The notes beneath the pieces are model-generated. The model made no database searches. It saw nothing but the letters and a program-made list of their open reading frames with translations, and was not told the DNA's origin. The translations under genes were made by a program, and so were the position numbers. Positions 3,187 to 32,199 of a stretch of 64,000 bases of DNA are shown piece by piece. The first letter of the stretch is position 1, and each line of letters opens with the position of its first letter. Source of the stretch: Alphaproteobacteria bacterium (lineage in GTDB: Bacteria > Pseudomonadota > Alphaproteobacteria > CAAHEQ01 > UBA3637); the NCBI GenBank assembly GCA_045613285.1, contig JAZLAQ010000030.1, forward strand, positions 28,290-92,289, given 5' to 3'.

Positions 3187-4049
3187 TATTCAGACTCCGG
3201 TACAGGACATTCATTTTGAATTAAAATGTTAGAAAGTCCAAAATTAACCAGACGGACAAAATCTGGGGTTTCATCTTCTTCAAATAAACGAACCCGAATA
3301 TCACCGTCAATAATACTTTCTACAATACCGATTCCCAAACCTGTTGGGAAAACACCAACCTGTCCAGATGTTAAAACAACATCTCCTTCAAAGACGGTTG
3401 TATTTTCCGGAAGGGATATGATTTTAGGAAGATTATCTCCATCCCCTGATAAAAAAGCGTGTATTTCTGTTTCCCCAACGATAACAGGTACCCTGGAAGC
3501 ATAATCTGTTAAAAGCATCAGTCGTGATATTGTTGAAGAAACTTCCACAATACGACCAAACACACCGGTAGACGTCATTGCAACATCACCTTTTTGAACT
3601 CCTTGTTCCGAACCGGCAGAAACAATCAATGATTTAGAAAAACGGGCCCCATCATCCATCAATACTTTTGCTGTAACAAATGTTACATTTTTAGGTGGAA
3701 CATAATTTAGTAATTTCTTTAATTCTTTTTGTTCACTATTAAGTTGTAGAGCTATATTCCGCCAATTTTTTAATTTTTCATTTTCCTGACGCAGTGCATT
3801 ATTTTGTCTGTATGTCATCATAAAATCAGACGATGAAGATACAAGGCCTTTTCCCCATTTAACAGGAATAGTCAAAACTTCTATGACAGGAGAAAAAAAT
3901 CCTTTGACTGTCATTTTAGCTTGACTTAAATAGGGATTTTCGAAGGTACTAAATACCAAAAAGCAAAACGATAAAAACAGCAAAAATAAAGGCAAAAAAA
4001 GCCGTATTTGTGATTTAATTTTTTTAATACGAAATTGACGGCTTTCCAT
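3186..4049 (-). CDS. mreC: Rod shape-determining protein MreC (287 aa)
   Basis: N-terminal TM, a coiled-coil region (LRQENEKLKNWRN...) and a C-terminal beta-rich domain. Lies directly downstream of mreB. Confidence 0.85.
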   Translation of the reverse strand: MESRQFRIKKIKSQIRLFLPLFLLFLSFCFLVFSTFENPYLSQAKMTVKGFFSPVIEVLTIPVKWGKGLVSSSSDFMMTYRQNNALRQENEKLKNWRNIALQLNSEQKELKKLLNYVPPKNVTFVTAKVLMDDGARFSKSLIVSAGSEQGVQKGDVAMTSTGVFGRIVEVSSTISRLMLLTDYASRVPVIVGETEIHAFLSGDGDNLPKIISLPENTTVFEGDVVLTSGQVGVFPTGLGIGIVESIIDGDIRVRLFEEDETPDFVRLVNFGLSNILIQNECPVPESE

Positions 4050-4059
4050 GCAAAAGACT

Positions 4060-5148
<1,089 letters not shown>

Positions 5149-5266
5149 CTAGTACTATTCATACAACACTTCCGCAAAGAAAACAACCTTTTTTTTCATT
5201 TTTTAGCAAAAAAAATCATAAACTTTTAGATAATTGATTTTTTGAGTCTTTGTTTTTAGATATTTT

Positions 5267-5581
5267 ATGTCAAAAAAGGAGGAAAAAATGACAAATTTTG
5301 CTACAATAGAAAATGTTTTCACACCGGATAAAAAATTAAGTAAAATTGAAATGCTTCGTGCTATTAAATTTGCAATTACTTCTGAATTTGAAGCTATCCA
5401 AATATACCAACAAATTATGGAAAGTTCCAATGATTCCCGTATTGTAAAGGTTCTGGCAGAAATTACAAATGATGAAAAAAATCATGTTGGTGGATTATAT
5501 AAACTTTTGGAATTTTTATCGCCAGAAGATTATAAAGAATATGAACATGGTTATGAAGAAACCATTGAAAATTACAAATGA
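5267..5581 (+). CDS. Small ferritin-like/rubrerythrin-like diiron-motif protein (104 aa); function unknown
   Basis: Two E...ExxH-like segments (SEFEAIQIY and EITNDEKNH) are typical of ferritin-like four-helix bundles. An SD-like AAAAGGAGG sits 6 nt upstream. Confidence 0.45.
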   Translation: MSKKEEKMTNFATIENVFTPDKKLSKIEMLRAIKFAITSEFEAIQIYQQIMESSNDSRIVKVLAEITNDEKNHVGGLYKLLEFLSPEDYKEYEHGYEETIENYK

Positions 5582-13184: not shown

Positions 13185-13922
13185 TTAAATCATAGCCATT
13201 CCACCGTTTACGTTGAGGGTTTGGCCAGTGATATAAGAGGCTTCATCACTTGCCAAAAAGACCACTGCATTTGCGATATCTTCCGGCAATCCTAATCTTC
13301 CCATCGGAATTTTTTGAGACAAAGCCTGCTTAGCCGATTCAGGCAAAACATCTGTCATCGGCGTTTTAATAAAGCCAGGGGCAACACAGTTAATTGTAAT
13401 ACCGCGACCGGCTAATTCTTGAGCCATACATTTAGACATAGCGATCAAACCTCCTTTGGATGCGCCATAATTCGCCTGACCAGCATTTCCCATCACACCC
13501 ACAACAGAAGCCATATTGATAATCCGTCCATAACGGCGTTTCATCATACCGGCTACAACGGCTCGAGATAACCGAAAAGCAGCCGTCAAATTAATATCCA
13601 AAACTTTCTGCCACTGTTCGTCTGTCATTCTCATAGAAAGACCATCCTTTGTTATACCGGCATTATTCACCAGAATATCAATTTTACCCATGTCTGTTTC
13701 TGCTTGTTTAACCAATTCTTTTAAGTCTTCATCATCTGTAATATTTGCCGAATAGACAAATACATTTTCACCAAGCTCCGCCTGAAAAGCTTTCAACACC
13801 TCGATATTCATATCCGTTAAAGCTAATGTTGCCCCCAAAGCGTGTAATCTTTTGGCAATTTCACGACCAATACCACCGGTTGCACCTGTTAAAAGAACGG
13901 TTTTGCCTTTAAAATCAAACAT
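13185..13922 (-). CDS. fabG: 3-oxoacyl-ACP reductase (245 aa, SDR family)
   Basis: TGATGGIG Rossmann motif, NNAG and a YxxxK catalytic pair (YGASKGG). Sits upstream of acpP-fabF. Confidence 0.9.
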   Translation of the reverse strand: MFDFKGKTVLLTGATGGIGREIAKRLHALGATLALTDMNIEVLKAFQAELGENVFVYSANITDDEDLKELVKQAETDMGKIDILVNNAGITKDGLSMRMTDEQWQKVLDINLTAAFRLSRAVVAGMMKRRYGRIINMASVVGVMGNAGQANYGASKGGLIAMSKCMAQELAGRGITINCVAPGFIKTPMTDVLPESAKQALSQKIPMGRLGLPEDIANAVVFLASDEASYITGQTLNVNGGMAMI

Positions 13923-13992
13923 TTAATTCTCCTTTTCGTTTTTTTTACATTTATTTTTATAGCACTTTTATTTAAAAATTGCAAGATATATC

Positions 13993-14964
13993 CTAAAACC
14001 AATGCCATTTTTTAAATAAATACCAAATAAAAAATCCAATAAGACAAATACTTAAAGTAATAAATAAAAATCCTGTTTTATGTTCTGATAAGGGGATACC
14101 CCCTAAATTCATTCCAAAAATTCCCGTTAAAAAAGTAAGTGGTAAAAAAATCCCGGCGATAACAGATAGGATATACGTATTACGTTGATTTTTTCTGTCT
14201 TCCTGATGAATTAGAACATCTTGATTAATACGAATCCTTTTTTCAAGCATATCAATATCATCAACGATTCGGCATATACGCAAATAATTATCGCGAAAAG
14301 ATTGTGCTGTTTCAGGTTTAAACCACAGCACACCATGTCTGTTCAAATTATCCAACACATTTCTTTCAGGGAAAATAAAACGGCGAATATTTAAAACCTG
14401 TCGTAATAATTCAGACAATGTTTCATAAGCATTTATTTGAAAATCCTCTTTTATCAGAGAATCTTCTATTTTATCTACTTTTTCTTCTATTCTTAAAATT
14501 GTATCTACAACATTATCCAGAGTCTGTTCCAAGATGACAGATATAAAATCACCAATATATTTAGGTGGTTCATCTTCGGACAAAAGATGATTTATTTCAT
14601 TTAAATTCAATACTTTTTTAAACTCTGTCGTCAATAATAAATTTTCACTTGCATAAACTTTCAGGAAAAACAGCGAATCCATATCTTCCAGCTGATCAGA
14701 AAAAGAGCGTAGAATTATAAAAAAATCTTTTAAAGGACGATAAAAACGAACATCAATTAGATTAATATCAGATAATTTTGATTTTATGAAAACAGATAAA
14801 GTTTTTTGTTGCTGTAGCCATTTATACGACTTTTTATCCAACAAATTCAAATGAACCCATATCTGTTTATAATTTTTTTTTAATTCACTTAAACCGGCTA
14901 TCGGAACTTGCCGAAAGCCTTTTTGTCCGTCATTTACATAAACAATAATAGATGATGACTTCAT
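13993..14964 (-). CDS. CorA-family divalent cation (Mg2+/Co2+/Zn2+) channel. The likely start is at 14964, giving ~323 aa.
   Basis: Two C-terminal TM helices with the signature GMN motif (IFGMNLGG). A GAGGGAG SD sits upstream of the ATG at 14964. The track start at 15009 adds an unlikely hydrophobic leader. Confidence 0.75.
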   Translation of the reverse strand: MKSSSIIVYVNDGQKGFRQVPIAGLSELKKNYKQIWVHLNLLDKKSYKWLQQQKTLSVFIKSKLSDINLIDVRFYRPLKDFFIILRSFSDQLEDMDSLFFLKVYASENLLLTTEFKKVLNLNEINHLLSEDEPPKYIGDFISVILEQTLDNVVDTILRIEEKVDKIEDSLIKEDFQINAYETLSELLRQVLNIRRFIFPERNVLDNLNRHGVLWFKPETAQSFRDNYLRICRIVDDIDMLEKRIRINQDVLIHQEDRKNQRNTYILSVIAGIFLPLTFLTGIFGMNLGGIPLSEHKTGFLFITLSICLIGFFIWYLFKKWHWF

Positions 14965-15067
14965 TATTCTCCCTCTATATTGATTTAGAACAAAAAAGAA
15001 AAAACACAAGCAAATTCCTTGATTTTTTTAAAAAAATAGTAGATACTATCAAAAAAAGGAGAATAAA

Positions 15068-15925
15068 ATGCCATTTGATTTTAAAATAACAATACCCCAA
15101 ACCGCCCTTCCCGTTTTCGAAGATTCATTATCAGAAGTTGCCGGTGCTGTTTTAACACGTTTACTTGAAAAAGGTCCAAAAGCTGGTCTTTGGGAACTGC
15201 AAGCCATTTTTGAAGAAAAACCAGACACAAAAAACATTAAACAGATTTTATCTTATGCTGCACAACAAACGCAGATCAAAACACCTTGTTGTCATATCAA
15301 ACAGATGCCGGACATCAACTGGTTAGAAGCAAGTTATCAAGGATTTCCACCTATTTCTGTCGGAAATTATTTTATTTATGGTTCCCATATTACAGAAACT
15401 TTACCAACGGATAAAATTACCTTAAAAATAGATGCGGCGACAGCCTTCGGAACAGGAGAACACCAAACCACACATGGTTGTTTACAGGCCTTAAATGATT
15501 TAGAGAAAATACCTGAAACCGTTTTGGATGTCGGGTGTGGTTCGGGTATTTTAGGTATGGCTTTTGCCAAAACTTATCAGAAAAAAGTTGATGCTGTTGA
15601 CATTGATCCTGAATCGGTACGTGTTACCATTGATAATGCTAAAAACAACGGATTAGATGATTTACTAACCGTTTGGCAAAGCGATGGTTATAAAAAAGTC
15701 GAAAACAAATATGATCTTATTTTCTGTAATATATTGGCACAACCTTTGATTGATATGGCAAATGATTTGAGCAATCACTTAAAGAAAGGTGGGATTGCTA
15801 TTTTATCTGGTTTTTTAAACAATCAGGAAAATTGGGTTAAAAAAGCTCATTTAGAAGTTGGTTTAACTTTTGTGAAACATTATCGTATCAACGGATGGTC
15901 TACATTGGTCATGATAAAGGATTAA
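15068..15925 (+). CDS. prmA: Ribosomal protein L11 methyltransferase (285 aa)
   Basis: SAM-binding motif LDVGCGSGILGMA, PrmA-like length and C-terminal layout. Confidence 0.85.
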   Translation: MPFDFKITIPQTALPVFEDSLSEVAGAVLTRLLEKGPKAGLWELQAIFEEKPDTKNIKQILSYAAQQTQIKTPCCHIKQMPDINWLEASYQGFPPISVGNYFIYGSHITETLPTDKITLKIDAATAFGTGEHQTTHGCLQALNDLEKIPETVLDVGCGSGILGMAFAKTYQKKVDAVDIDPESVRVTIDNAKNNGLDDLLTVWQSDGYKKVENKYDLIFCNILAQPLIDMANDLSNHLKKGGIAILSGFLNNQENWVKKAHLEVGLTFVKHYRINGWSTLVMIKD

Positions 15926-15926
15926 A

Positions 15927-17558
15927 ATGCAGAAACAAATCAGAAATTTTTTGAAAGAACAAAATCTGGATGCTTTACTGATAACTCGTACCGATTCGTT
16001 TTTAGGTGAATATTATCCTCCTGAAAAAAAGCAGTTGGAAAAAGCAACAGGTTTCACCGGTTCTGCAGGTTTAGCTTTATTTACAAAAGATAAATCTGTT
16101 TTATTTGTTGATTCTCGCTATACGGAACAGGCAAAAATAGAAACAGATATGTCTGTATACGAAATTCCAACTCAAACAACTGTATCAGCTTGGATACAAA
16201 AAAATCTACCAAAAGCCCATATCGGATATAATCCATGGCAAAGATCGGTTAGTTGGGTTGAGTTTATGAATACCAAAGATATCAATTTAGCTCCTGTTGA
16301 AGAAAAAAAATGGGAAACCTTGTTTCCATCAGATGCTGATAAATCAGACCATATATTTGATTATAATGAGTTTTGCGGGGAAACAACCGTTTCAAAAATT
16401 CAGAAAGTTATTCAGTTTATAAAACAAGAAGATTTGGATGCCTATATTTTCACATCACCTGATAGTGTGTCCTGGTTATTAAATAAAAGAAATAAGGCTA
16501 TACCGGAGTATCCCGTTATTTTTACCCGTTTAGTTGTTTGGAAGGATGGTACATATCAAGAGTTAACATCTGATTTTCAATTCAATAATATAAAAATCGG
16601 TATAGATATAAACGAAACCCCTATGGCGTTGTTTTCCTTTTTGCAACAGAATGCAACTATCAAGCATATTCCGGATATTGTCCAAGAATTAAAAGCCGTT
16701 AAAAATGCAACTGAATGTCAAAATATCCGCCAGACTTGTTTCTATGAAAGTCAGGTTATTTGCCGTTTTTTGGCGTGGATCGAGCAAAATAAAGAGACTA
16801 TTGACGAGTTAGCCTGCGATAAAAAATTAAAGGAATTAAGGACGGAAAATACGTTCTATATCGGGGACAGTTTTGATACGATTGCTGCTGTGGGAGAACA
16901 TGCTGCTCGGGCCCATTATCAAGCAACAAAAGAAACAAATGTACCGATAACATCCGCATCAATACTTTTAGTTGATACAGGTGGTAATTACCTGACTGGT
17001 ACAACGGATATGACGCGAACTATTTATATAGCAGAACCTACTCCTATTATTAAAAAAAGATACACACAAGTATTAAAGGGTCATATTGCATTGGCAACAA
17101 CTTCTGTAAAAGAAGGAGATACGCCGGTACAGTTAGATAAAAATGCCCGTCAATTTTTACGAAATGATGGTGTTGATTACGGTCATTCAACTGGTCACGG
17201 TATCGGTATGCTTTTAAGTGTTCACGAAGCGCCTCCATATATATACGAAAAATCGGAAACACCTCTAAAAGCAGGTATGTTGTTTTCAAATGAGCCCGCT
17301 TTCTATGATGCAAAGGAAGGATACGGAATTCGATTGGAAAATATGATTTTAACGGATAAAGGGCCAGATGATACCTTGATCTTGGAAAACTTGCTTTGGA
17401 TACCTTTTGATGGAAGATTGGTTGATTTTGACTTACTGACGACCGAAGAAAAAAAATGGTTAAAATCATATCATAATGCGATTCGTGTTCGTATATTACC
17501 TAATCTGTCACGACAAGAGCAAGAAACCTTAATTCCTTTACTTGACTTTTTTGACTAA
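15927..17558 (+). CDS. pepP: Xaa-Pro aminopeptidase (M24B family, long form with N-terminal creatinase-like domains; 543 aa)
   Basis: M24 metal-ligand motifs DTGGNY...D, HSTGHGIG, ...E...E (NEPAFY, RLENM). Starts 2 nt after the prmA stop. Confidence 0.8.
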   Translation: MQKQIRNFLKEQNLDALLITRTDSFLGEYYPPEKKQLEKATGFTGSAGLALFTKDKSVLFVDSRYTEQAKIETDMSVYEIPTQTTVSAWIQKNLPKAHIGYNPWQRSVSWVEFMNTKDINLAPVEEKKWETLFPSDADKSDHIFDYNEFCGETTVSKIQKVIQFIKQEDLDAYIFTSPDSVSWLLNKRNKAIPEYPVIFTRLVVWKDGTYQELTSDFQFNNIKIGIDINETPMALFSFLQQNATIKHIPDIVQELKAVKNATECQNIRQTCFYESQVICRFLAWIEQNKETIDELACDKKLKELRTENTFYIGDSFDTIAAVGEHAARAHYQATKETNVPITSASILLVDTGGNYLTGTTDMTRTIYIAEPTPIIKKRYTQVLKGHIALATTSVKEGDTPVQLDKNARQFLRNDGVDYGHSTGHGIGMLLSVHEAPPYIYEKSETPLKAGMLFSNEPAFYDAKEGYGIRLENMILTDKGPDDTLILENLLWIPFDGRLVDFDLLTTEEKKWLKSYHNAIRVRILPNLSRQEQETLIPLLDFFD

Positions 17559-17576
17559 ATATAATAAAATGGGCGT

Positions 17577-18062
17577 ATGACAAAAATATTGATAACAACT
17601 GGACCGGTCGCAACAAATCGTAAAGCTCACTTTAACTATACGATTTTGGAAACTTTTGTTGCCGGTATTGTTTTAACCGGTGGAGAAGTAAAATCCCTGC
17701 GGGCGGGACATGCAACTATCAATGAAAGTTATGCTTCCTTTGAACAAGACGGTTTTTGCCTTATCAATATGCATATTATGGATTACGGGGCAGCAAAAGG
17801 CGGTTTTATCAAGCAGGTTGCCAGTCGCCCAAAACAATTACTTCTTCGCAAAAAAGAGTTAAAACAAATACAAGATGCCTTAAATAAAAAAGGACTGACA
17901 GTTGTTCCTCTGGAATTATTTTTTAATGATAGAGGTCTTGCTAAAGTTAAAATCGGAATTGCCAAAGGTAAAAATCTGGTTGACAAGCGTGAAACCGTTA
18001 AAAAAAGGGATTGGAACAAAGAAAAAAGAAGGATTTTAGCACATTATAACAGTGGTAAATAA
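17577..18062 (+). CDS. smpB: SsrA-binding protein SmpB (161 aa)
   Basis: Conserved SmpB core (NRKAHFNY, LTGGEVKSLR) and a basic C-terminal tail. Confidence 0.9.
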   Translation: MTKILITTGPVATNRKAHFNYTILETFVAGIVLTGGEVKSLRAGHATINESYASFEQDGFCLINMHIMDYGAAKGGFIKQVASRPKQLLLRKKELKQIQDALNKKGLTVVPLELFFNDRGLAKVKIGIAKGKNLVDKRETVKKRDWNKEKRRILAHYNSGK

Positions 18063-18101
18063 TTGAAAATATTGTGTTTTATTTTTTTATCGAAAAAATA
18101 T

Positions 18102-18130
18102 TTGACTTTTGTCAACTTTTGTTGTAAAAT
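18102..18130 (+). promoter_or_regulatory. Sigma70-type promoter (TTGACT, 17-nt spacer, TAAAAT) for the His-rich exported-protein cassette
   Basis: Read directly: TTGACT at 18102-18107, a 17-nt spacer, TAAAAT at 18125-18130, then AAGGAGG at 18151-18157 and the ATG at 18166. Confidence 0.5.
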
Positions 18131-18165
18131 AAAGAAACAACTGAAACTAAAAGGAGGAAAAAGAA

Positions 18166-18390
18166 ATGATAAAAAAAATAATGATTATTGGTGGTCTGTT
18201 TGGTTTAACCGGCTGTGCTGGTTATCAGGAATATTACGGACACAATGAACCCACGACCATTATCCCAACACAACCCGTTTCACAAACAATTGTTCAACCG
18301 GCTGCGGTCCTAGCCCCTGCCCCTATGATTATTGTGCCAACTCGTAACTATTGGTTCAGACACCGTCATCATCATCATCACTGCAGATAA
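18166..18390 (+). CDS. Small lipoprotein with a C-terminal histidine cluster (74 aa)
   Basis: Lipobox LTGC after a hydrophobic leader. C-terminus WFRHRHHHHHCR, encoded by (CAT)4CAC. Confidence 0.5.
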   Translation: MIKKIMIIGGLFGLTGCAGYQEYYGHNEPTTIIPTQPVSQTIVQPAAVLAPAPMIIVPTRNYWFRHRHHHHHCR

Positions 18391-18426
18391 TTTTAACAAC
18401 ATCTTAATTTTAAAAGGAGAATAATT

Positions 18427-18924
18427 ATGAATACATTTAAAAAAACAATTTTAACCTTATGTGCCATTGCTGCCATTGCTTTAACACCGACACAATCAGA
18501 GGCACGCCGTCATCATTATCATGGTGGTTTCCGTGGTCATCATCATTACTCTCACCACCACCATCATAGTTTTTGGGGACGTGGTGGTCGCCATTTCTGG
18601 CCTGGTTTCGTAGGTGGTATTGTTGGCGGTACTTTGTTAAGAGGATATACAACGCCTATTTACACAGCACCTGTTGTCTATTCAACGCCTGTTGTAACAA
18701 CTCCAACAGTTCAATATGTACAACAACAACCAGTTTATACAACAAGTCGACAACCTCAAGTAATTTATGTCAATTCTACAACAGAACAGGCGAAACAAGT
18801 AACAACGGAACAACCAAGACAGCAAGAAACAATCGTTTTGGAAGGTCCTGTTACCATTCAAAAGAATAATAGCGGGGATATTATTTTAAGACAAGCCCAA
18901 CAACAAAATGTTCAAACACGATAA
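18427..18924 (+). CDS. Secreted His/Gly-rich protein with a Y/T/P/V/Q-rich low-complexity region (165 aa)
   Basis: Signal peptide (MNTFKKTILTLCAIAAIALTPTQSEA), then RRHHYHGGFRGHHHYSHHHHHSFWGRGGRHFW, then repeats of TP(V/I)(V)Y(S/T)T. AAGGAG SD upstream. Confidence 0.55.
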   Translation: MNTFKKTILTLCAIAAIALTPTQSEARRHHYHGGFRGHHHYSHHHHHSFWGRGGRHFWPGFVGGIVGGTLLRGYTTPIYTAPVVYSTPVVTTPTVQYVQQQPVYTTSRQPQVIYVNSTTEQAKQVTTEQPRQQETIVLEGPVTIQKNNSGDIILRQAQQQNVQTR

Positions 18925-18935
18925 GGAATAACAAA

Positions 18936-19781
18936 ATGAAGACATTAAAATACGTCGCCAGTTTGGCAATAATGGGTACTTTGGTCGGTTGTCAGACGAT
19001 GCCACGGGGTGATATGGAGATGGCCGATAAAGCCAATAAAAGTTTAGCTACAGAAATTGATGCTTTAAAAAATCATCCAAATGCTAAATATAACTATGTT
19101 CGTAAAACAACCGCAGAAGGTGAACAAATCCAAGGACATATTGAATATACAGACAAAAATCTGGGAACAGTTAAAAAAACATTTTCCACCGATGAAAAAG
19201 GTGTCTTTTCTATGACAGAAACCGTTCAAAAAGGATACAATACTCCCTTTGAACAAAATGGTCCTTTGGCAAAAAAAACAGTTGGAATTAAAGTTGAAAA
19301 ATCCGCTTTAACGGATGGTATTTATGCTGGCACTTTAATTCGTGACACTGAAAATACCCGTAAAATTATTGCATCCAATGTCAAAGCAGTGGAAGTCATT
19401 CCTTTTGCTATGGGATATGATTTAAATAAATTTGTTGGTAAAAATGCATATACTTCTAACACTGTTTATGCTGTTGCTGATGATTACAATTTAACTGCTA
19501 TCAAACCGGTGGAAGGTCCTGTCTACGCTAATTTGGCACGAAAAGAACCGACATTTTTTGTCTTATCAGGAAAAGATTTGGTTTCAGTTCCTTATTCTTT
19601 AGGTTCTGTTACTGGTTCTAACGAAGCAAAAGCTTTTGCAAAAGACGGTTCTCTCTTCATTACACCGGCTTTACAAAATAAGCTGATTACAAAAAGTTTT
19701 GTTGATCGTAAAGTTATTTATAAAGAACAAAGAAAGAAAAGAATTCGGAATGTAAGAAAACTTTCCCGAGAAAGAAATTAG
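18936..19781 (+). CDS. Lipoprotein of unknown function (281 aa) with a basic C-terminal tail
   Basis: Lipobox LVGC. Lies 11 nt after the previous gene. C-terminal KEQRKKRIRNVRKLSRERN. Confidence 0.55.
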   Translation: MKTLKYVASLAIMGTLVGCQTMPRGDMEMADKANKSLATEIDALKNHPNAKYNYVRKTTAEGEQIQGHIEYTDKNLGTVKKTFSTDEKGVFSMTETVQKGYNTPFEQNGPLAKKTVGIKVEKSALTDGIYAGTLIRDTENTRKIIASNVKAVEVIPFAMGYDLNKFVGKNAYTSNTVYAVADDYNLTAIKPVEGPVYANLARKEPTFFVLSGKDLVSVPYSLGSVTGSNEAKAFAKDGSLFITPALQNKLITKSFVDRKVIYKEQRKKRIRNVRKLSRERN

Positions 19782-19783
19782 AT

Positions 19784-19820
19784 AAAAAAACACCCTGTCA
19801 ATTGGCAGGGTGTTTTTTTG
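19784..19820 (+). terminator. Rho-independent terminator closing the three-gene exported-protein cassette
   Basis: AAAAAAACACCCTG, loop tcaattgg, CAGGGTGTTTTTTTG. A 7-bp GC-rich stem plus a T7 run. Confidence 0.7.
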
Positions 19821-19995
19821 TACAAAATGATTTTTTATATTTAAATACTTCTTTGATTCAAAAAATATATTGATTTATATTTAATATTGTTTATTATTCA
19901 TAATAATATAAAGCATTCTTAAAGTAATAAATTAAGGCTTCCTAATATCAAATCAGGAAACCTTAATTAAGTATTTATCTGTAAAAAAGTTTATA

Positions 19996-21762
19996 TTACC
20001 TTAATTTAACATGAACTTCACGCAGCTGCTTTTCCGTTACCGGTGATGGTGCATTCATCAACAAATCCCTTGCTTGTTGGTTGAATGGGAAAGCAATAAC
20101 TTCACGGATATAGGTTTCATCCGTTACCAGCATAACAAGTCTGTCAAAACCAAAGGCAGCTCCACCGTGTGGCGGGGCACCGTATTGGAAGGCATTTAAC
20201 ATACCGGCAAACTTTTCTTTCACTGTTTCCGGACCATAACCGGCAATTTCAAAAGCTTTAAACATGATATCCGGTCTATGATTCCGAATCGCACCAGATA
20301 AAATTTCATATCCGTTACAAACCATATCAAACTGATAAGCCTTAATGGTCAAAGGGTCCTGATTTAACAGAGCATCCATTTCGCCCTGTGGCATTGAAAA
20401 TGGATTATGCGAGAATTCAGGGGCCCCTGTTTCTTCATTGGCTTCATAAAATGGAAAATCCGTAATCCAACAGAAACGGAAAGCATTCTTTTCAATCAAA
20501 TTTAATTCTTGGCCTAATAAAGTCCGAACAGAGCCTGCAAATTTTGCAGTTTTTTCTCCTTTACCACAAACAAAGAAAATACTATCACCTATTTGCGCAG
20601 CAGTCAAGTCAATCAACTGTTGTATTCTATCGGCATCCAAATTCTTGGCAATAGGACCTTTCATCCCTTCTTCAGCCAAAGTCATATAGCCCAAACCACC
20701 CATACCTTGTTCAACAGCAAAAGCATTCATCTTGTCAAACCAACTGCGTGGTTTTACGGCAGTATTCGGTGTCCGAATAGCACGAACGAAACCACCATTT
20801 GCTACCATATTGGCAAACAGTCCAAAAGAAGAACCTGCAAAAATTTCAGATACATCCTTGATTACCAACGGATTTCGTAAATCTGGTTTATCCGTTCCGT
20901 AAGTCAACATTGATTCAGCAAATGGAATCTGAACAAACGGAGCCTGTGAAATCAACGCATTTGGTGCAAATTCAGCAAATAAATCAGAAATTAAAGTTTC
21001 ACCAACTTTAAAAATTTCTTCCTGTGTTACAAAAGACATTTCAAAGTCTATCTGATAAAATTCCCCTGGGGAACGGTCCGCACGACTATCTTCATCACGA
21101 AAACAGGGAGCCAACTGAAAATAACGGTCAAATCCGGCAACCATCAACAATTGCTTAAATTGTTGCGGTGATTGTGGTAAAGCATAAAATTCCCCTTTAT
21201 GAACACGACTGGGGACCAAATAATCCCGTGCACCTTCCGGACTGGAAGATGTTAAAATCGGTGTTTGAAATTCCGTAAATCCTAATTCCCACATTTTATC
21301 ACGGACAAATTTGGTCATCCGGTTGCGAATATGGATATTCGCATGTGGTTTTTCCCGACGCAAGTCCAAGAAACGATAAGTCAAGCGTTGTTCTTCGGAC
21401 AAATCTTCTTCATCGGCAACTACCTGTATCGGTAATACAGCAGCTTCTGATTGAACCTGCACATTCAAAACACTAATTTCAATTTCCCCTGTCGGCATTT
21501 TGGGATTAACGGTGTTAGCCTCACGCAACAGGACTTTACCTTCTATTGTAATAACTGATTCAGGACGAATTTTTTCTAAAACCTGGAAAACAGGGCTTGC
21601 AGTATCCAAAACACACTGAGTAATTCCAAAATTATCCCGCAAATCAATAAATAATAAATTACCGTGGTCACGCTTCCGATGAACCCAACCGGATAATTTT
21701 ACAACTTTTTCAGCATCTGATGCTCTTAAAGCACCACAGGTATGTGAACGATATTGATTCAT
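19996..21762 (-). CDS. aspS: Aspartyl-tRNA synthetase, bacterial type (588 aa)
   Basis: Class II aaRS motifs (FRDED, GGGIDR-like [16 protein letters not shown]), an N-terminal OB anticodon-binding domain and the bacterial insertion domain. Confidence 0.95.
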
Positions 21763-21780
21763 AATAACATCTCCTTATAC

Positions 21781-23121
21781 TTATTTATTCTTTAAAAAAT
21801 CTGTCAACCAATGAATATTATACTGACCATCTATAAAGTCAGGTTCCGCAATAATTCTTTGATGAAGGGGTATCGTTGTCGGAATTCCTTCAATGACAAA
21901 CTCCTCCAAAGAACGCCGCATCCGCATTAAAACACCGTTTCTAGTCCGACCATGAACAATCAACTTGGCCACCATACTGTCATAATTGGGTGGGACAACA
22001 TAACCCGCATACATTCCTGAATCAACACGAACGTCTAAGCCACCTGGGGTATGCCACTGCCCGATTTGACCGGCACGAGGGATAAAGGTATCAGGATCTT
22101 CCGCATTGATACGACATTCCATTGCATATCCATTAAAACGAATATCATCCTGTGTATACCCCAAAGCGGCACCGCCCGACACACGTATCTGATCACGCAC
22201 AATGTCTACGCCAGTTACAGCTTCAGTAATCGGGTGTTCCACCTGAACACGCGTATTCATTTCCAAGAAATAAAACTGTCCTTTTTCATACAGGAATTCT
22301 ATTGTTCCGACATTTGTATAACCTAACTTTTTCATAGCAGAAACAACTATATTGCCAAGCTGACGCCGTTGTTCTGTATTCAAGGCCGGTGAAGGTGTTT
22401 CCTCTAAAATCTTTTGGTTATTTCGTTGCAACGAACAATCACGTTCACCTAAGTGGACAACATTACCATAATTATCAGCCAAAACCTGAACTTCTATGTG
22501 TCGGGGATTTTTTAAATATTTTTCTAAATAGACAGAATCATTCGCAAAACCGCTTTTTGCCTCTTGCTTGGCCAGTGTAAAAGCATCTGCCATTTCGGTG
22601 GGATTTTCAACGATTTTCATCCCTTTTCCACCACCGCCGGCGGTTGCTTTTATAATAACCGGATATCCGATTTTTTCTGCAATCAGTAAAGCTTCTTGTG
22701 GTGTTTTTACTTCACCGTCCGATCCTGGGATAACCGGTAAACCGGCATCGATAGCAGCCTGCTTAGCGCTGATTTTATCCCCCATCAGACGTATCATCTT
22801 TGGTGTTGGTCCAATAAAAGCTATTCCATGAGCCTGAACCATTTCAGCAAATTCAGCATTTTCTGATAAGAATCCATACCCCGGATGAATGGCATCTGCC
22901 CCTGTCATAATGGCAGCCGAAATAATAGCTGCTCGATTGAGATATGAATCCTTGGCTGGAGCCGGTCCAATACAGATTGCTTCGTCAGCCAATTTAACAT
23001 GCATTGCATTAGAATCAACCGTTGAGTGAACAGCAACGGTTTTAATTCCCATCTCCCGACAAGAACGATGAATTCGCAAAGCGATTTCACCACGATTGGC
23101 TATTAAAACTTTTTCAAACAT
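21781..23121 (-). CDS. accC: Acetyl-CoA carboxylase, biotin carboxylase subunit (446 aa)
   Basis: ATP-grasp biotin carboxylase motifs (MFEKVLIANRGEIA, GGGGKGM, EMNTRVQVEHP). Sits directly downstream of accB. Confidence 0.95.
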   Translation of the reverse strand: MFEKVLIANRGEIALRIHRSCREMGIKTVAVHSTVDSNAMHVKLADEAICIGPAPAKDSYLNRAAIISAAIMTGADAIHPGYGFLSENAEFAEMVQAHGIAFIGPTPKMIRLMGDKISAKQAAIDAGLPVIPGSDGEVKTPQEALLIAEKIGYPVIIKATAGGGGKGMKIVENPTEMADAFTLAKQEAKSGFANDSVYLEKYLKNPRHIEVQVLADNYGNVVHLGERDCSLQRNNQKILEETPSPALNTEQRRQLGNIVVSAMKKLGYTNVGTIEFLYEKGQFYFLEMNTRVQVEHPITEAVTGVDIVRDQIRVSGGAALGYTQDDIRFNGYAMECRINAEDPDTFIPRAGQIGQWHTPGGLDVRVDSGMYAGYVVPPNYDSMVAKLIVHGRTRNGVLMRMRRSLEEFVIEGIPTTIPLHQRIIAEPDFIDGQYNIHWLTDFLKNK

Positions 23122-23123
23122 TT

Positions 23124-23555
23124 TTATTCCACACTGAATAACGGTTGATTGTATTCTACTGGACTACCGGCTTCTACTAAAATTTCAGTAATACGACCGG
23201 CTTTATCTGATTTAATCGGATTAAAGGTTTTCATCGCTTCAACCAAACAAACCGTTTGTCCGACCGACACACGATCACCTACTTTAACAAACGGTAAAGA
23301 TTTTTCATCTTTTGTCAAATATACCACACCAACCATAGGGGATAAAATATAATTTCCCTTTGTTTTTTCAGGTGCCGTTATTTGAGCAGATTGGACAGGT
23401 TGTTGTTGTACACTAACCTGAGGCGATACAGTAGCATTCGATGCTCCATTAATACGCAAGTACATACCGTTTGATTCATATTCAATTTCAGATAAGTTAT
23501 TTTCTTTTAACAGTTTAATTAACTCCTGAATATCATTTTTTTGTTCTTTTTCCAT
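23124..23555 (-). CDS. accB: Biotin carboxyl carrier protein (143 aa)
   Basis: C-terminal biotinyl domain with the EAMK biotin-attachment motif (CLVEAMKTFNPI). Lies upstream of accC with a 2-nt gap. Confidence 0.85.
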   Translation of the reverse strand: MEKEQKNDIQELIKLLKENNLSEIEYESNGMYLRINGASNATVSPQVSVQQQPVQSAQITAPEKTKGNYILSPMVGVVYLTKDEKSLPFVKVGDRVSVGQTVCLVEAMKTFNPIKSDKAGRITEILVEAGSPVEYNQPLFSVE

Positions 23556-23696
23556 AGGAAATCCTTTTTGTTAAAATAAAACTTTTCTGTTTTACACTAT
23601 TTTATAAAAAAAAGCAAGTATAAAAAAATTCTTTTATCTCTTGAAATTTATTTTTAAGTGTGATAATCTTACAAAGATTTATTGATGGAGAAAAAA

Positions 23697-24944
23697 ATGA
23701 ATACTTTTTTTGATTATTTAAAAGAACGTGGTTATGTCTATCAAATGACACATGAAGAGGAGATTAAACAAGCTTTAAATGGGGATAAAAAAATCACTTT
23801 TTATCTGGGAATTGATCCGACAGCAGACAGTCTTCATATCGGACATTTCTTTTCCTTAATGATGTTCAGACATTTACAAAGACAGGGACATCATGGTATT
23901 TTAGTTATCGGAGGGGCAACTGCCTTAGTTGGTGATCCAACAGGAAAATCCGATATGCGTAAAATGATGACCCATGAAACTGTGGCTCATAATGTACAGG
24001 AAGTTAAAAATCTAGCTGCTCGTTTCATTAAAACTGATGGAGATAATCCGGCTTTGATTTTAGATAACTCGGAATGGATAAATAAATTCAATTACGTTGA
24101 TTTTATGCGGTTGGTTGGAACCCACTTCAATGTAAATAAAATGTTAGCATCAGAAGCTTACTCTTCTCGTTTAGCAAATGGCGGTTTGACATTCTTGGAA
24201 ATGGGATATATGTTGATGCAAGCTTACGATTTTGTTTACCTGAACAGAACATATAATTGTGTTTTGGAAATCGGTGGCAGCGATCAATGGGGCAATATTG
24301 TAGCCGGTACAGAACTCAGTCGCAAAATGAACTTCCATGCCGATGGAAAAGCTACGGCAGATTGTCCGGATACATTTGGGTTAACCTGCCCTCTTTTAAT
24401 GACAAAAGAAGGTAAGAAAATGGGTAAAACCGAAAACGGAACACTGTGGGTTGCCCGTGATAAAACAACGACATATGCTTTCTATCAATACTTTTATAAT
24501 ACACCCGATTCAGATACAGAAATGCTGTTGAAACTGTTTACAGATATTCCGACAGATGAAATACAACAAATGTGCCAGAGCAATATTATAGAAGCAAAAA
24601 AACGGATGGCCTATGAAATTACAAAACTTGTTCATGGCGAAGAAGAAGCAAATAAAGCTGTAGAAACGGCCCAATCCTTATTTAAAGGGAATGCTGATTC
24701 CGAAAACGTACCCTCAGCAAGATATGCTGTCGAAAAATTGAAAGAAGGTATTTTAATTGTTGATTTAGCTGTTGAAGTTGGATTATTACCTTCGAAAGGG
24801 GAAGCCCGTCGTTTAATTCAACAAAACGGCTTATCTTTAGATGGAGAAAAAGTTACTGACGCTATGGCGAAAGTTCCAACTGATAAAACGAGTATTATTC
24901 TACAAAAAGGAAAAAAGAACTTTTTAAAAGTTATCTTTGAGTGA
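23697..24944 (+). CDS. tyrS: Tyrosyl-tRNA synthetase. The likely start is the ATG at 23697 (415 aa).
   Basis: Class I HIGH motif (SLHIGH), KMSKS-like KKMGKT and a C-terminal S4-like domain. GGAG lies 8 nt upstream of the ATG at 23697. The track start at 23682 is a TTG 15 nt upstream. Confidence 0.9.
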   Translation: MNTFFDYLKERGYVYQMTHEEEIKQALNGDKKITFYLGIDPTADSLHIGHFFSLMMFRHLQRQGHHGILVIGGATALVGDPTGKSDMRKMMTHETVAHNVQEVKNLAARFIKTDGDNPALILDNSEWINKFNYVDFMRLVGTHFNVNKMLASEAYSSRLANGGLTFLEMGYMLMQAYDFVYLNRTYNCVLEIGGSDQWGNIVAGTELSRKMNFHADGKATADCPDTFGLTCPLLMTKEGKKMGKTENGTLWVARDKTTTYAFYQYFYNTPDSDTEMLLKLFTDIPTDEIQQMCQSNIIEAKKRMAYEITKLVHGEEEANKAVETAQSLFKGNADSENVPSARYAVEKLKEGILIVDLAVEVGLLPSKGEARRLIQQNGLSLDGEKVTDAMAKVPTDKTSIILQKGKKNFLKVIFE

Positions 24945-24977
24945 TTTTTCTTTTGAGGGGGTATAATTAAGAAATGA

Positions 24978-26375
<1,398 letters not shown>

Positions 26376-26786
26376 ATGGAAATGAAACTCCGTATTTTTT
26401 CACCTATAGGCGTTATTTTGGAAACACCGGTTCAACAAATTGATTTTGAATCCATTAGTGGTTTTTTCACTTTACTTCCTAAGCATACGGATATCGTTTC
26501 TGCATTAAAAATCGGTATTTTAACCTATAAAACAAACGATACGATTGCCTATGTTGCTTGTAATAAGGGTGTTTTGGTTAAAAAAAATGATACGGTCTTT
26601 GTTTCAACTAAAATGGCAATTTTAGGAACTGATTTAAAGGAACTGGAAACAAAAATAACTACTGATTTCAAAATGATAGAAGAAGAACGTAAAGAAATAA
26701 ATACAGCTATGGCAAAATTGGAAATCGGTCTGGCAAAAGGTATTATGTCATTAAAAAATATAGGAGAAAACAATGTCGGAATTTGA
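26376..26786 (+). CDS. atpC: ATP synthase epsilon subunit (136 aa)
   Basis: Size, beta-sandwich plus C-terminal helical layout, and its position 0 nt after the atpD stop. Confidence 0.8.
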   Translation: MEMKLRIFSPIGVILETPVQQIDFESISGFFTLLPKHTDIVSALKIGILTYKTNDTIAYVACNKGVLVKKNDTVFVSTKMAILGTDLKELETKITTDFKMIEEERKEINTAMAKLEIGLAKGIMSLKNIGENNVGI

Positions 26787-31908: not shown

Positions 31909-32199
31909 ATGATTAAATCTGAATTAGTTGCAGAAGTTGCAAAAAATAATAAACTGACATTTGTCAATGCCGATCGGGTTGTAACAACCGTATTTGATAC
32001 AATTATAAAAAACCTGAAAGCCGGAAAACGTGTTGAATTACGTGGTTTCGGTGTTTTTTCTGTTCGTGTACGTAAACCACGTGTAGGACGTAACCCAAAA
32101 ACAGGTAAAATTGTTCGAGTCGATGAAAAACGTATGCCGTTTTTCCGTGCCGGTCATCGTGTTAAAGTAGCCTTAAATAAAAAAGGTAGCGAAGGCTAA
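31909..32199 (+). CDS. HU/IHF-family nucleoid-associated DNA-binding protein, IHF-like (96 aa)
   Basis: GFGVFSVRVRKPRVGRNPKTG...RMPFFRAG arm motif. The GRNPKTG and F(R/K)(A/P)G signatures resemble IHF subunits more than HU. Confidence 0.85.
   Translation: MIKSELVAEVAKNNKLTFVNADRVVTTVFDTIIKNLKAGKRVELRGFGVFSVRVRKPRVGRNPKTGKIVRVDEKRMPFFRAGHRVKVALNKKGSEG

Follow-up and report, generated by a model that had tools for sequence, protein, structure and literature searches.

A conserved three-gene envelope cassette downstream of smpB and its undescribed family of His-rich glycine-zipper proteins

We analyzed a 64,000-nucleotide stretch of contig JAZLAQ010000030.1 (assembly GCA_045613285.1), hereafter called the window, with a focus on a cassette at 18102–19819 that consists of a promoter, three same-strand genes (g1, g2, and g3), and a terminator. 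The second gene, g2, encodes a predicted secreted protein that belongs to an undescribed, sharply defined family in which a His-rich head precedes an invariant glycine-zipper motif. All three genes are real as judged from sequence, and conservation of the cassette is confined to a narrow alphaproteobacterial group. The host is an uncultured gut alphaproteobacterium, and the locus is probably a genuine operon read as one transcript. The anatomy and conservation of the locus are well supported, and we hold them with high confidence. Our best explanation of the whole, a conserved envelope operon with a metal-binding mechanism, is put forward tentatively, with less than even confidence. The features of the cassette are as follows.

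18102–18130, plus strand: sigma-70-like promoter; TTGACT at 18102–18107, 17-nt spacer, TAAAAT at 18125–18130; 10 of 12 consensus matches
18102–18115, no strand: exact palindrome TTGACTTTTGTCAA, overlapping the −35 element; candidate operator
18153–18157, plus strand: Shine–Dalgarno (SD) sequence GGAGG of g1
18166–18390, plus strand: g1, predicted 74-aa lipoprotein; lipobox LTGC (Cys17), P/V/T/I-rich linker, His-cluster tail NYWFRHRHHHHHCR
18414–18419, plus strand: SD sequence AAGGAG of g2
18427–18924, plus strand: g2, predicted 165-aa secreted protein; core gene; member of the undescribed His-rich glycine-zipper family
18427–18504, plus strand: predicted g2 signal peptide, residues 1–26, ending ...TQSEA/RR (slash, cleavage site)
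18505–18573, plus strand: His/Gly/Arg/aromatic head of g2, residues 27–49, with 11 His; predicted local distance difference test (pLDDT) below 50 and no secondary structure in AlphaFold2 (AF2)
18574–18630, plus strand: g2 motif WGRGGRHFWPGFVGGIVGG, W50–G68, including the GxxxGxxxG zipper G60, G64, G68
18631–18921, plus strand: T/V/P/Y/Q-rich linker and short C-terminal module of g2 (ETIVLEGPVTIQKNNSGDIILRQAQQQNVQTR)
18923–18927, plus strand: SD sequence AAGGA of g3, overlapping the g2 stop codon
18936–19781, plus strand: g3, predicted 281-aa lipoprotein; lipobox LVGC (Cys19), Lys-rich, basic tail KEQRKKRIRNVRKLSRERN
19782–19819, no strand: intrinsic terminator; stem CACCCTGTC / GGCAGGGTG at 19791–19812, T7 at 19813–19819, A7 upstream

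Conservation and transcription of the cassette

The intergenic gaps are 36 nt (g1/g2) and 11 nt (g2/g3), and an SD sequence lies ahead of every gene. An earlier description made from the letters alone (the sequence-only reading) had proposed a compact unit of three exported proteins framed by a promoter and a terminator. Each element that it listed, from the promoter and SD sequences to the gaps and the terminator, is present, and the unit itself is borne out in a diverged relative. On that contig (L090, 44% GC), prmA, pepP, and smpB are followed by an 85-aa lipoprotein, a 181-aa g2 homologue, the 37% g3 homologue P0043, and a terminator, which reproduces the g1-g2-g3 order after smpB. On a second contig (L001), the end of a g2 orthologue stands directly upstream of the 84% g3 orthologue P0002. 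Contig L091 holds a 78-aa g1 homologue, a 172-aa g2 homologue, and a terminator without g3, and contigs L087/L088 and L137 hold pepP, smpB, and a g2 homologue only. These arrangements indicate a conserved core of smpB and g2, to which some lineages have added g1 and g3. Outside the alphaproteobacterial group, g2 family members occur without g1 or g3. The synteny suggested for the two flanks is thus kept on one side, with smpB upstream in L090, L087/L088, and L137, and not on the other: none of 80 aspS loci of relatives carries the cassette, and the aspS context differs among relatives.

Substitution patterns point to selection on the encoded proteins. Between the window and L001, g3 is under strong purifying selection, with 0.091 nonsynonymous (dN) and 0.75 synonymous (dS) substitutions per site (dN/dS ∼0.12), and the g2 C-terminus is under weaker purifying selection (dN 0.18, dS 0.43, dN/dS ∼0.42). 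Start sites, SD sites, and lipoboxes are conserved in orthologues. The low complexity of g1 and of much of g2, together with the low AF2 confidence, could suggest that the open reading frames are artefacts, that is, noncoding low-complexity frames. The conservation data refute this: gene order, starts, SD sequences, and lipoboxes persist in orthologues, dN/dS is low for g3 and for the g2 C-terminus, and the 19-residue motif of g2 is invariant in at least 86 sequences of very different GC.

The sequence features of a single transcription unit are present in the window and conserved in L090. In a scan of 2.6 kb for promoter-like sites, the cassette promoter ranks among the three top-scoring ones on the plus strand; in this AT-rich DNA such sites are commoner than expected (20 versus 9.2). 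Its block is conserved in L090, L087, and L137, so that TTGACTTTTGTC(A/T)A...TA(A/T)A(A/C)T is nearly unchanged across four lineages; smpB dS between the window and L090 is saturated, that is, neutral sites have diverged. The palindrome has the form TTGAC-N4-GTCAA, and TTGACTTTTGTC is invariant in the same four lineages (the window, L090 at ∼3375–3390, L137, and L087). It may be an operator. The form is not enriched elsewhere in the window, where 5 matches were found versus 2.6 expected with one mismatch allowed. One such single-mismatch copy, CTGACATTTGTCAA, lies in an intergenic gap at 31954–31967, and a second TTGACT-17-TAAAAT site with identical hexamers lies at 17542–17570, inside the 3′ end of pepP and just upstream of smpB. 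The 5′ untranslated region, at ∼30 nt, is too short for a riboswitch.

At the other end, the terminator folds with −25.6 kcal/mol (z = −8.0), and none of 200 shuffled sequences folds as well. With an A-tract upstream and a T-tract downstream it is possibly bidirectional and may also serve the convergent aspS side, where aspS has an additional hairpin at 19930–19968. Between smpB and the cassette promoter we detected no terminator, so read-through from smpB is possible, and the cassette is likely, rather than proven, to be self-contained.

The annotated flanks (13185–26786) contain only housekeeping genes, with fabG, corA, prmA, pepP (M24), and smpB upstream and aspS, accC, accB, tyrS, atpD, and atpC downstream. 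The AspS of the window is 89% identical to AspS of metagenome-assembled genomes of uncultured gut Alphaproteobacteria from human, rabbit, and ruminant samples. The GC content of the cassette (37.1%) is near that of the window (35.6%) and therefore gives no sign of recent transfer. Within the 64 kb, the two H5 runs and the WGRGGRHFW/GGIVGG motifs appear in no frame outside the cassette. Despite the presence of smpB, an Rfam search over the window gave no family at gathering score and no tRNA, tmRNA, or riboswitch.

The g2 family and its neighbors

A search with g2 yielded 40 proteins, and a scan of JGI metagenomes added 55 loci; after removal of duplicates, the family comprises at least 86 distinct cores. 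Its carriers are gut and rumen contigs of 34–69% GC, plus jumbo-phage contigs. The family appears to cross phyla and to be widespread in gut bacteria as well as phage-borne. Members share one layout of signal peptide, disordered head, motif with zipper helix, V/T/P linker, and short C-terminal module, and the signal-peptide layout is the same across the family (AFA/GP, AEA/HH). The core is a 19-residue motif, W-G-[RH]-G-G-R-x-F-W-P-G-F-x-G-G-x-x-G-G, in which W50, G51, G53, G54, R55, F57, W58, G60, G63, and G64 are invariant, G67 is nearly invariant (≥90%), and G68 is not among the conserved columns.

The uncharged zipper stretch is exactly 15 residues long in 50 of 85 members (median 15), with a mean Kyte–Doolittle hydropathy of 1.22. 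A canonical transmembrane helix has about 19 or more hydrophobic residues and a 19-residue Kyte–Doolittle mean above ∼1.6; the family has a 19-residue mean of 1.22, and the g2 of the window one of 0.74. Being too short and too weakly hydrophobic, the zipper helix is unlikely to span a bilayer, and the segment fits a putative self-associating or single-leaflet helix. Ahead of it, the family head averages ∼34 residues and consists of H (25%), G (22%), P (16%), R (10%), and F (6%), with HHH, HGG, and PHGG ∼2–4-fold above shuffled sequences. The 25 residues before the motif contain 7.3 His on average, and more than 90% of members have His clusters. Behind the zipper, the linker is rich in V (31%), T (21%), and P (14%), and 69 of ∼85 members end in a VWVEGRYVDQVQANGTVVRVWQPGHYEQR-like module, W-x-x-G-x-Y ... 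W-x-P-G-H-Y. One member, on contig L092, is a lipoprotein whose His head begins right after the lipid-modified Cys, an arrangement that puts the head outside the cytoplasm. Another, P0015 (149 aa, ENA contig), is chimeric, with a normal His head and zipper and a C-terminus like oxaloacetate decarboxylase gamma (PF04277, E 0.0039).

In the window, the g2 signal peptide reads MNTFKK, then ILTLCAIAAIALTP, then S-E-A at positions −3 to −1. It thus has the charged N-region (KK), a hydrophobic core of 14 residues (7–15 are usual), and the small −3/−1 residues of a Sec signal peptide, with an atypical Arg-Arg at +1/+2; the cleavage site was assigned by rule. Mature g2 would start with RRHHYHGGFRGHHHYSHHHHHSFWGRGGRHFW. 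Of 165 residues, 12 are His, and 11 of these fall within the 25 residues before the motif. AF2, run on a 27-sequence alignment, predicts helices at residues 3–19 (the signal peptide) and 57–68 (FWPGFVGGIVGG) and a small beta-hairpin at ∼145–152, with the remainder disordered. The second helix contains the glycine-zipper structural motif of G60, G64, and G68, along with G63 and G67. By these predictions, g2 is exported by a cleavable Sec signal peptide and is almost wholly disordered. In the window and its alphaproteobacterial relatives, g2 lacks the usual C-terminal module and has a Gln-rich end finishing N-Q-x-R-like. The Tyr/Gln-rich tract that the sequence-only reading had singled out proves to be the local form of the family's V/T/P-rich linker.

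That none of the three proteins belongs to a described family stands. Pfam, NCBIfam, and PHROGs gave nothing significant for g1, g2, g3, and 33 family members, and PDB sequence profiles of g2 and g3 matched only His-tags or noise. The source names of cluster members are blank or "hypothetical protein", the family has no name, and we found no paper describing its motif or a His-rich glycine-zipper periplasmic protein. The further proposal of a module specific to this lineage holds for g1, which occurs in three lineages, and for g3, which occurs in three clusters; it fails for g2, a member of a broad, phage-carried family.

In the high-GC gut loci, the family gene stands alone in varied housekeeping settings. 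In one example it follows rplL, a metallophosphatase gene, and two unannotated genes and lies just upstream of ruvC; elsewhere it lies beside genes for a TPR-LysM protein and a radical-SAM protein, or beside dnaX or parC-like genes. Clustering of neighboring genes revealed no universal partner. In five high-GC loci (L086, 5336–5926; L141, 3164–3760; L133; L139; L142), an unannotated, cytoplasmic protein of ∼196 aa (MTD.EWYE.VK.G.DAGWKLVWE...) is encoded directly before the family gene; a guess that it is an extracytoplasmic function sigma factor found no Pfam match and was dropped. On a pig-gut contig (L083, 1–2148), cas1, cas2, and a Card1-type CARF nuclease gene lie ∼4 kb upstream of the family gene, probably by coincidence.

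The phage-borne copies were found on IMG/VR contigs L147–L151, which are 100–414 kb long.

L147: 6004–6507
L148 and L149: 5926–6402
L150: ∼4872–5330
L151: ∼4845–5273

In L147 and L148, the family gene is bordered by virion structural genes, and an 865-aa neighbor in L148 matches portal/virion proteins of cultured jumbo phages. The lipoprotein copy on L092 (2975–3511) likewise lies between a virion structural gene (phrog_3004, E 6.6e-66) and an HNH endonuclease gene. No copy was found in 50,697 records of cultured phages.

This carriage raises the question of whether the cassette is the remnant of a phage lysis module of the spanin type, a small Pro-rich outer-membrane lipoprotein with a membrane-associated partner. 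In PHROGs, g1 weakly matches an Rz-like spanin (phrog_812, E 0.074, residues 1–38 only), and one family member weakly matches LysC (Rz1-like, PF23793, E 0.37). Neither match is significant, and both are confined to the signal peptide and lipobox. In the window, moreover, the 5 kb to each side of the cassette are free of phage genes, the GC content of the cassette is close to that of the window, and purifying selection and synteny hold across lineages. We consider such a remnant extremely unlikely.

The first gene resembles g2 on a smaller scale. With a lipobox, a P/V-rich linker, and a C-terminal His cluster ending in WFRHRHHHHHCR, g1 may be described as a lipid-anchored mini-version of g2. 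The lipoboxes of the predicted lipoproteins g1 (LTGC) and g3 (LVGC) agree with L-[ASTV]-[GA]-C. A g1 homologue precedes a g2-like gene in L090 (85 aa, ending GPWHHHGPWHHHGPRGRW) and in L091 (78 aa, ending RSWYHGPRFWGHGHHHHHGRHR), which makes three lineages in all; the invariant features of the three proteins are the lipobox Cys, an APAP..VP core, and the H5 cluster. The likeness between the g1 tail and the g2 head that had been noticed in the window (WFRHRHHHHH in g1 versus FRGHHH..HHHHHSFW in g2) recurs in both other lineages, as HGPRGRW versus HGPRGGFW in L090 and FWGHGHHHHH versus WGRGGRHFW in L091. These three low-complexity pairs are anecdotal and would fit either a shared origin or co-evolution.

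The third gene is known from only three clusters among 5.8 billion proteins, namely, itself, P0002, and P0043. An exhaustive HMMER search with g3 over 1.84 billion representatives returned one true homologue, P0043, and a profile search and scans of GTDB genomes and JGI metagenomes added no relatives. The lipobox Cys is invariant among the homologues. The basic C-terminal tail noted earlier is present in the window and missing from P0043. AF2 (3-sequence alignment) places a helix at residues 27–45 followed by beta-strands; with a pLDDT of 39.7 this model is unreliable, and a Foldseek comparison with the PDB gave no match better than E 0.18, with TM-scores under 0.2. Residues 29–81 of g3 have a short motif, IEYTDxxxGTVK, in common with P0045, which consists of seven tandem copies of a ∼55-residue unit; the E value of 3e-7 is driven by these repeats, and the common unit may be a small beta-module or chance. 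From the model, g3 would be a lineage-restricted folded lipoprotein, and g1 and g3 both appear to be orphans of the narrow alphaproteobacterial group.

Metal binding and competing explanations

In the mechanism that we propose, the lipid anchor would hold g1 at the membrane, and g2 would be held there by self-association of the zipper or by insertion into one leaflet. The two proteins would display flexible, His-rich cationic peptides in the periplasm, to which divalent transition metals (Zn, Ni, or Cu) would bind reversibly. In the gut environment, this would serve to buffer metals or pass them on, with g3 as an accessory partner. The argument for metals is that His clusters are nearly universal in the family and present in all g1 homologues, that HHH, HGG, and PHGG exceed their frequency in shuffled sequences, and that the layout parallels the Cu- and Zn-binding octarepeat and zipper region of the prion protein. 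Taken by itself, metal binding is a weak proposal and falls short of an even chance.

Several observations weigh against it. Across the family, invariance is confined to W, G, R, F, and P and does not extend to His. The number of His residues ranges from 1 to 15 among members, a 7-residue indel separates close relatives, and a few members (L122, L102, L136) carry Tyr in place of His. The sequence-only reading had itself named highly variable His tracts as a sign against a metal role, and this is partly what is seen, yet the tracts are nearly universal. Families of metal-binding proteins gave no significant matches either (PF13801, E 0.57, and ZrgA PF10986, E 0.021, each in 1 of 27 members; none in NCBIfam). 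No metal transporter or regulator recurs beside family genes, no metal-homeostasis gene lies beside the cassette in the annotated flanks, and the promoter palindrome resembles CRP/FNR half-sites and not a Fur, Zur, or NikR box. The phage-borne copies are not obviously explained by metal buffering. Finally, Arg-Arg at +1/+2 of a mature protein is unfavorable for Sec export, which leaves the cleavage site or topology of g2 uncertain. As His is variable and replaceable and stands at none of the invariant positions, a metal-binding role is plausible and unproven.

A role at the membrane unrelated to metals has about the same likelihood. In that case the zipper would oligomerize as a pore, patch, tether, or stress protein, and the cationic aromatic head would bind anionic lipid, lipopolysaccharide, or peptidoglycan; phages would use the module to alter the envelope of the host, as in superinfection exclusion or lysis timing. 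Glycine zippers commonly occur in small lipoproteins of the envelope and in pore-forming proteins. Such a self-assembling component would account for the fact that conservation falls on W, G, R, F, and P and not on His, for the replacement of His by Tyr in some members, and for a GxxxGxxxG helix whose length is fixed at 15 residues in 50 of 85 members. It would also suit copies that lie among the structural genes of jumbo-phage contigs and a family gene that is solitary in the varied contexts of other phyla. However, the retention of His clusters by over 90% of members and by every g1 homologue argues for selection on His itself. There is also no significant match to a glycine-zipper family in Pfam (the best, PF05433 at E 0.045 in 1 of 27 members, is below the curated cutoff, and the g2 of the window has no match), and no holin, endolysin, or immunity genes lie near the cassette in the annotated window flanks.

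Alternatively, g2 and perhaps g1 could be precursors of a secreted cationic antimicrobial peptide or bacteriocin, with g3 as an immunity or export lipoprotein. The family head resembles His/Gly-rich and Trp/Arg-rich antimicrobial peptides in composition, and g2 is a small protein with a signal peptide. The annotated window flanks contain no ABC exporter, processing protease, or recognizable immunity gene, however, and in several lineages the gene stays in the same housekeeping setting behind smpB. Most family loci lack g3, and the long V/T/P linker and C-terminal module are conserved, unlike in a short peptide. This alternative is very unlikely.

Relation to known envelope systems

If the envelope-operon explanation is true, many uncultured gut and rumen bacteria have an unannotated protein family in their envelope that is also carried by jumbo phages. 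Metal binding, if true, would be of consequence in the gut, where hosts withhold metals from bacteria. The family offers, in addition, a compact model of a 15-residue glycine zipper joined to a disordered tail at a bacterial membrane. For annotation, the invariant 19-residue motif makes the family easy to find, and hundreds of "hypothetical proteins" would become one named family, with g1 and g3 as lineage-specific additions. What deserves note is the invariant motif, the cross-phylum gut spread, and the carriage by jumbo phages; nothing here overturns current understanding.

Among more distant likenesses, 69 of ∼85 family ends look like the YXWGXW module of the PXPV/YXWGXW proteins (PF12778/PF12779), which likewise have a signal peptide and P/V-rich tracts. 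Membership in that group was rejected: PF12779 never matched, the best that PF12778 gave was E 0.03 (4 of 27 members), and the g2 of the window lacks the module. Phage spanins and envelope lipoproteins also place a small Pro-rich lipoprotein beside a membrane-associated protein, and the family shares the jumbo-phage carriage; unlike spanins, it has no significant PHROG match and no holin or endolysin, and its chromosomal copy occupies a stable housekeeping position.

By analogy, the family recalls the N-terminal half of the prion protein (PrP), in which a signal peptide, His/Gly/aromatic repeats, and a hydrophobic GxxxG zipper follow one another in the same order. This likeness we take as a lead, not as evidence of function. 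In such a prion-N-half-like class, the His/Gly/aromatic head might sense Cu, Zn, Ni, or pH and switch zipper self-assembly into oligomers, pores, or condensates at the membrane. The outcome would be envelope homeostasis in bacteria and remodeling of the host envelope by jumbo phages, with g1 and g3 tuning assembly. We regard this extended scheme as unlikely. In PrP, the octarepeats (His/Gly/Trp) bind Cu and Zn, self-associate, and precede a GxxxG glycine zipper (PMC13251052). PrP is eukaryotic, glycosylphosphatidylinositol-anchored, and equipped with a folded C-terminal domain, the sequences are unrelated, and no Prion Pfam family appeared at E values up to 10 among 33 family members. The likeness is architectural only.

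Overall, the cassette comes closest to a combination of two known kinds, small envelope lipoproteins with glycine zippers and His-rich metal binders of the periplasm. With the Glycine zipper 2TM proteins (PF05433; the Rickettsia 17-kDa antigen, SlyB/PCP), the OsmB type, and Gly-zipper_Omp, it shares small, exported proteins with GxxxGxxxG; as in these, association with a leaflet is likelier than spanning, and the L092 member and g1 are lipoproteins. Unlike them, g2 has a single 15-residue zipper after the invariant WGRGGRxFWPGF, together with a His-rich head and a V/T/P linker. With the exported or cytoplasmic metal binders ZraP/CpxP/Spy (PF13801), ZrgA, the His-rich N-terminus of ZinT, Hpn, and RcnB, it shares His clusters in flexible termini and a His-tract length that varies between species, and ZraP, ZinT, ZrgA, and RcnB are likewise periplasmic. 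No homology connects them, and whereas these metal binders are built from folded helical or beta domains, g2 is predicted to be almost wholly disordered.

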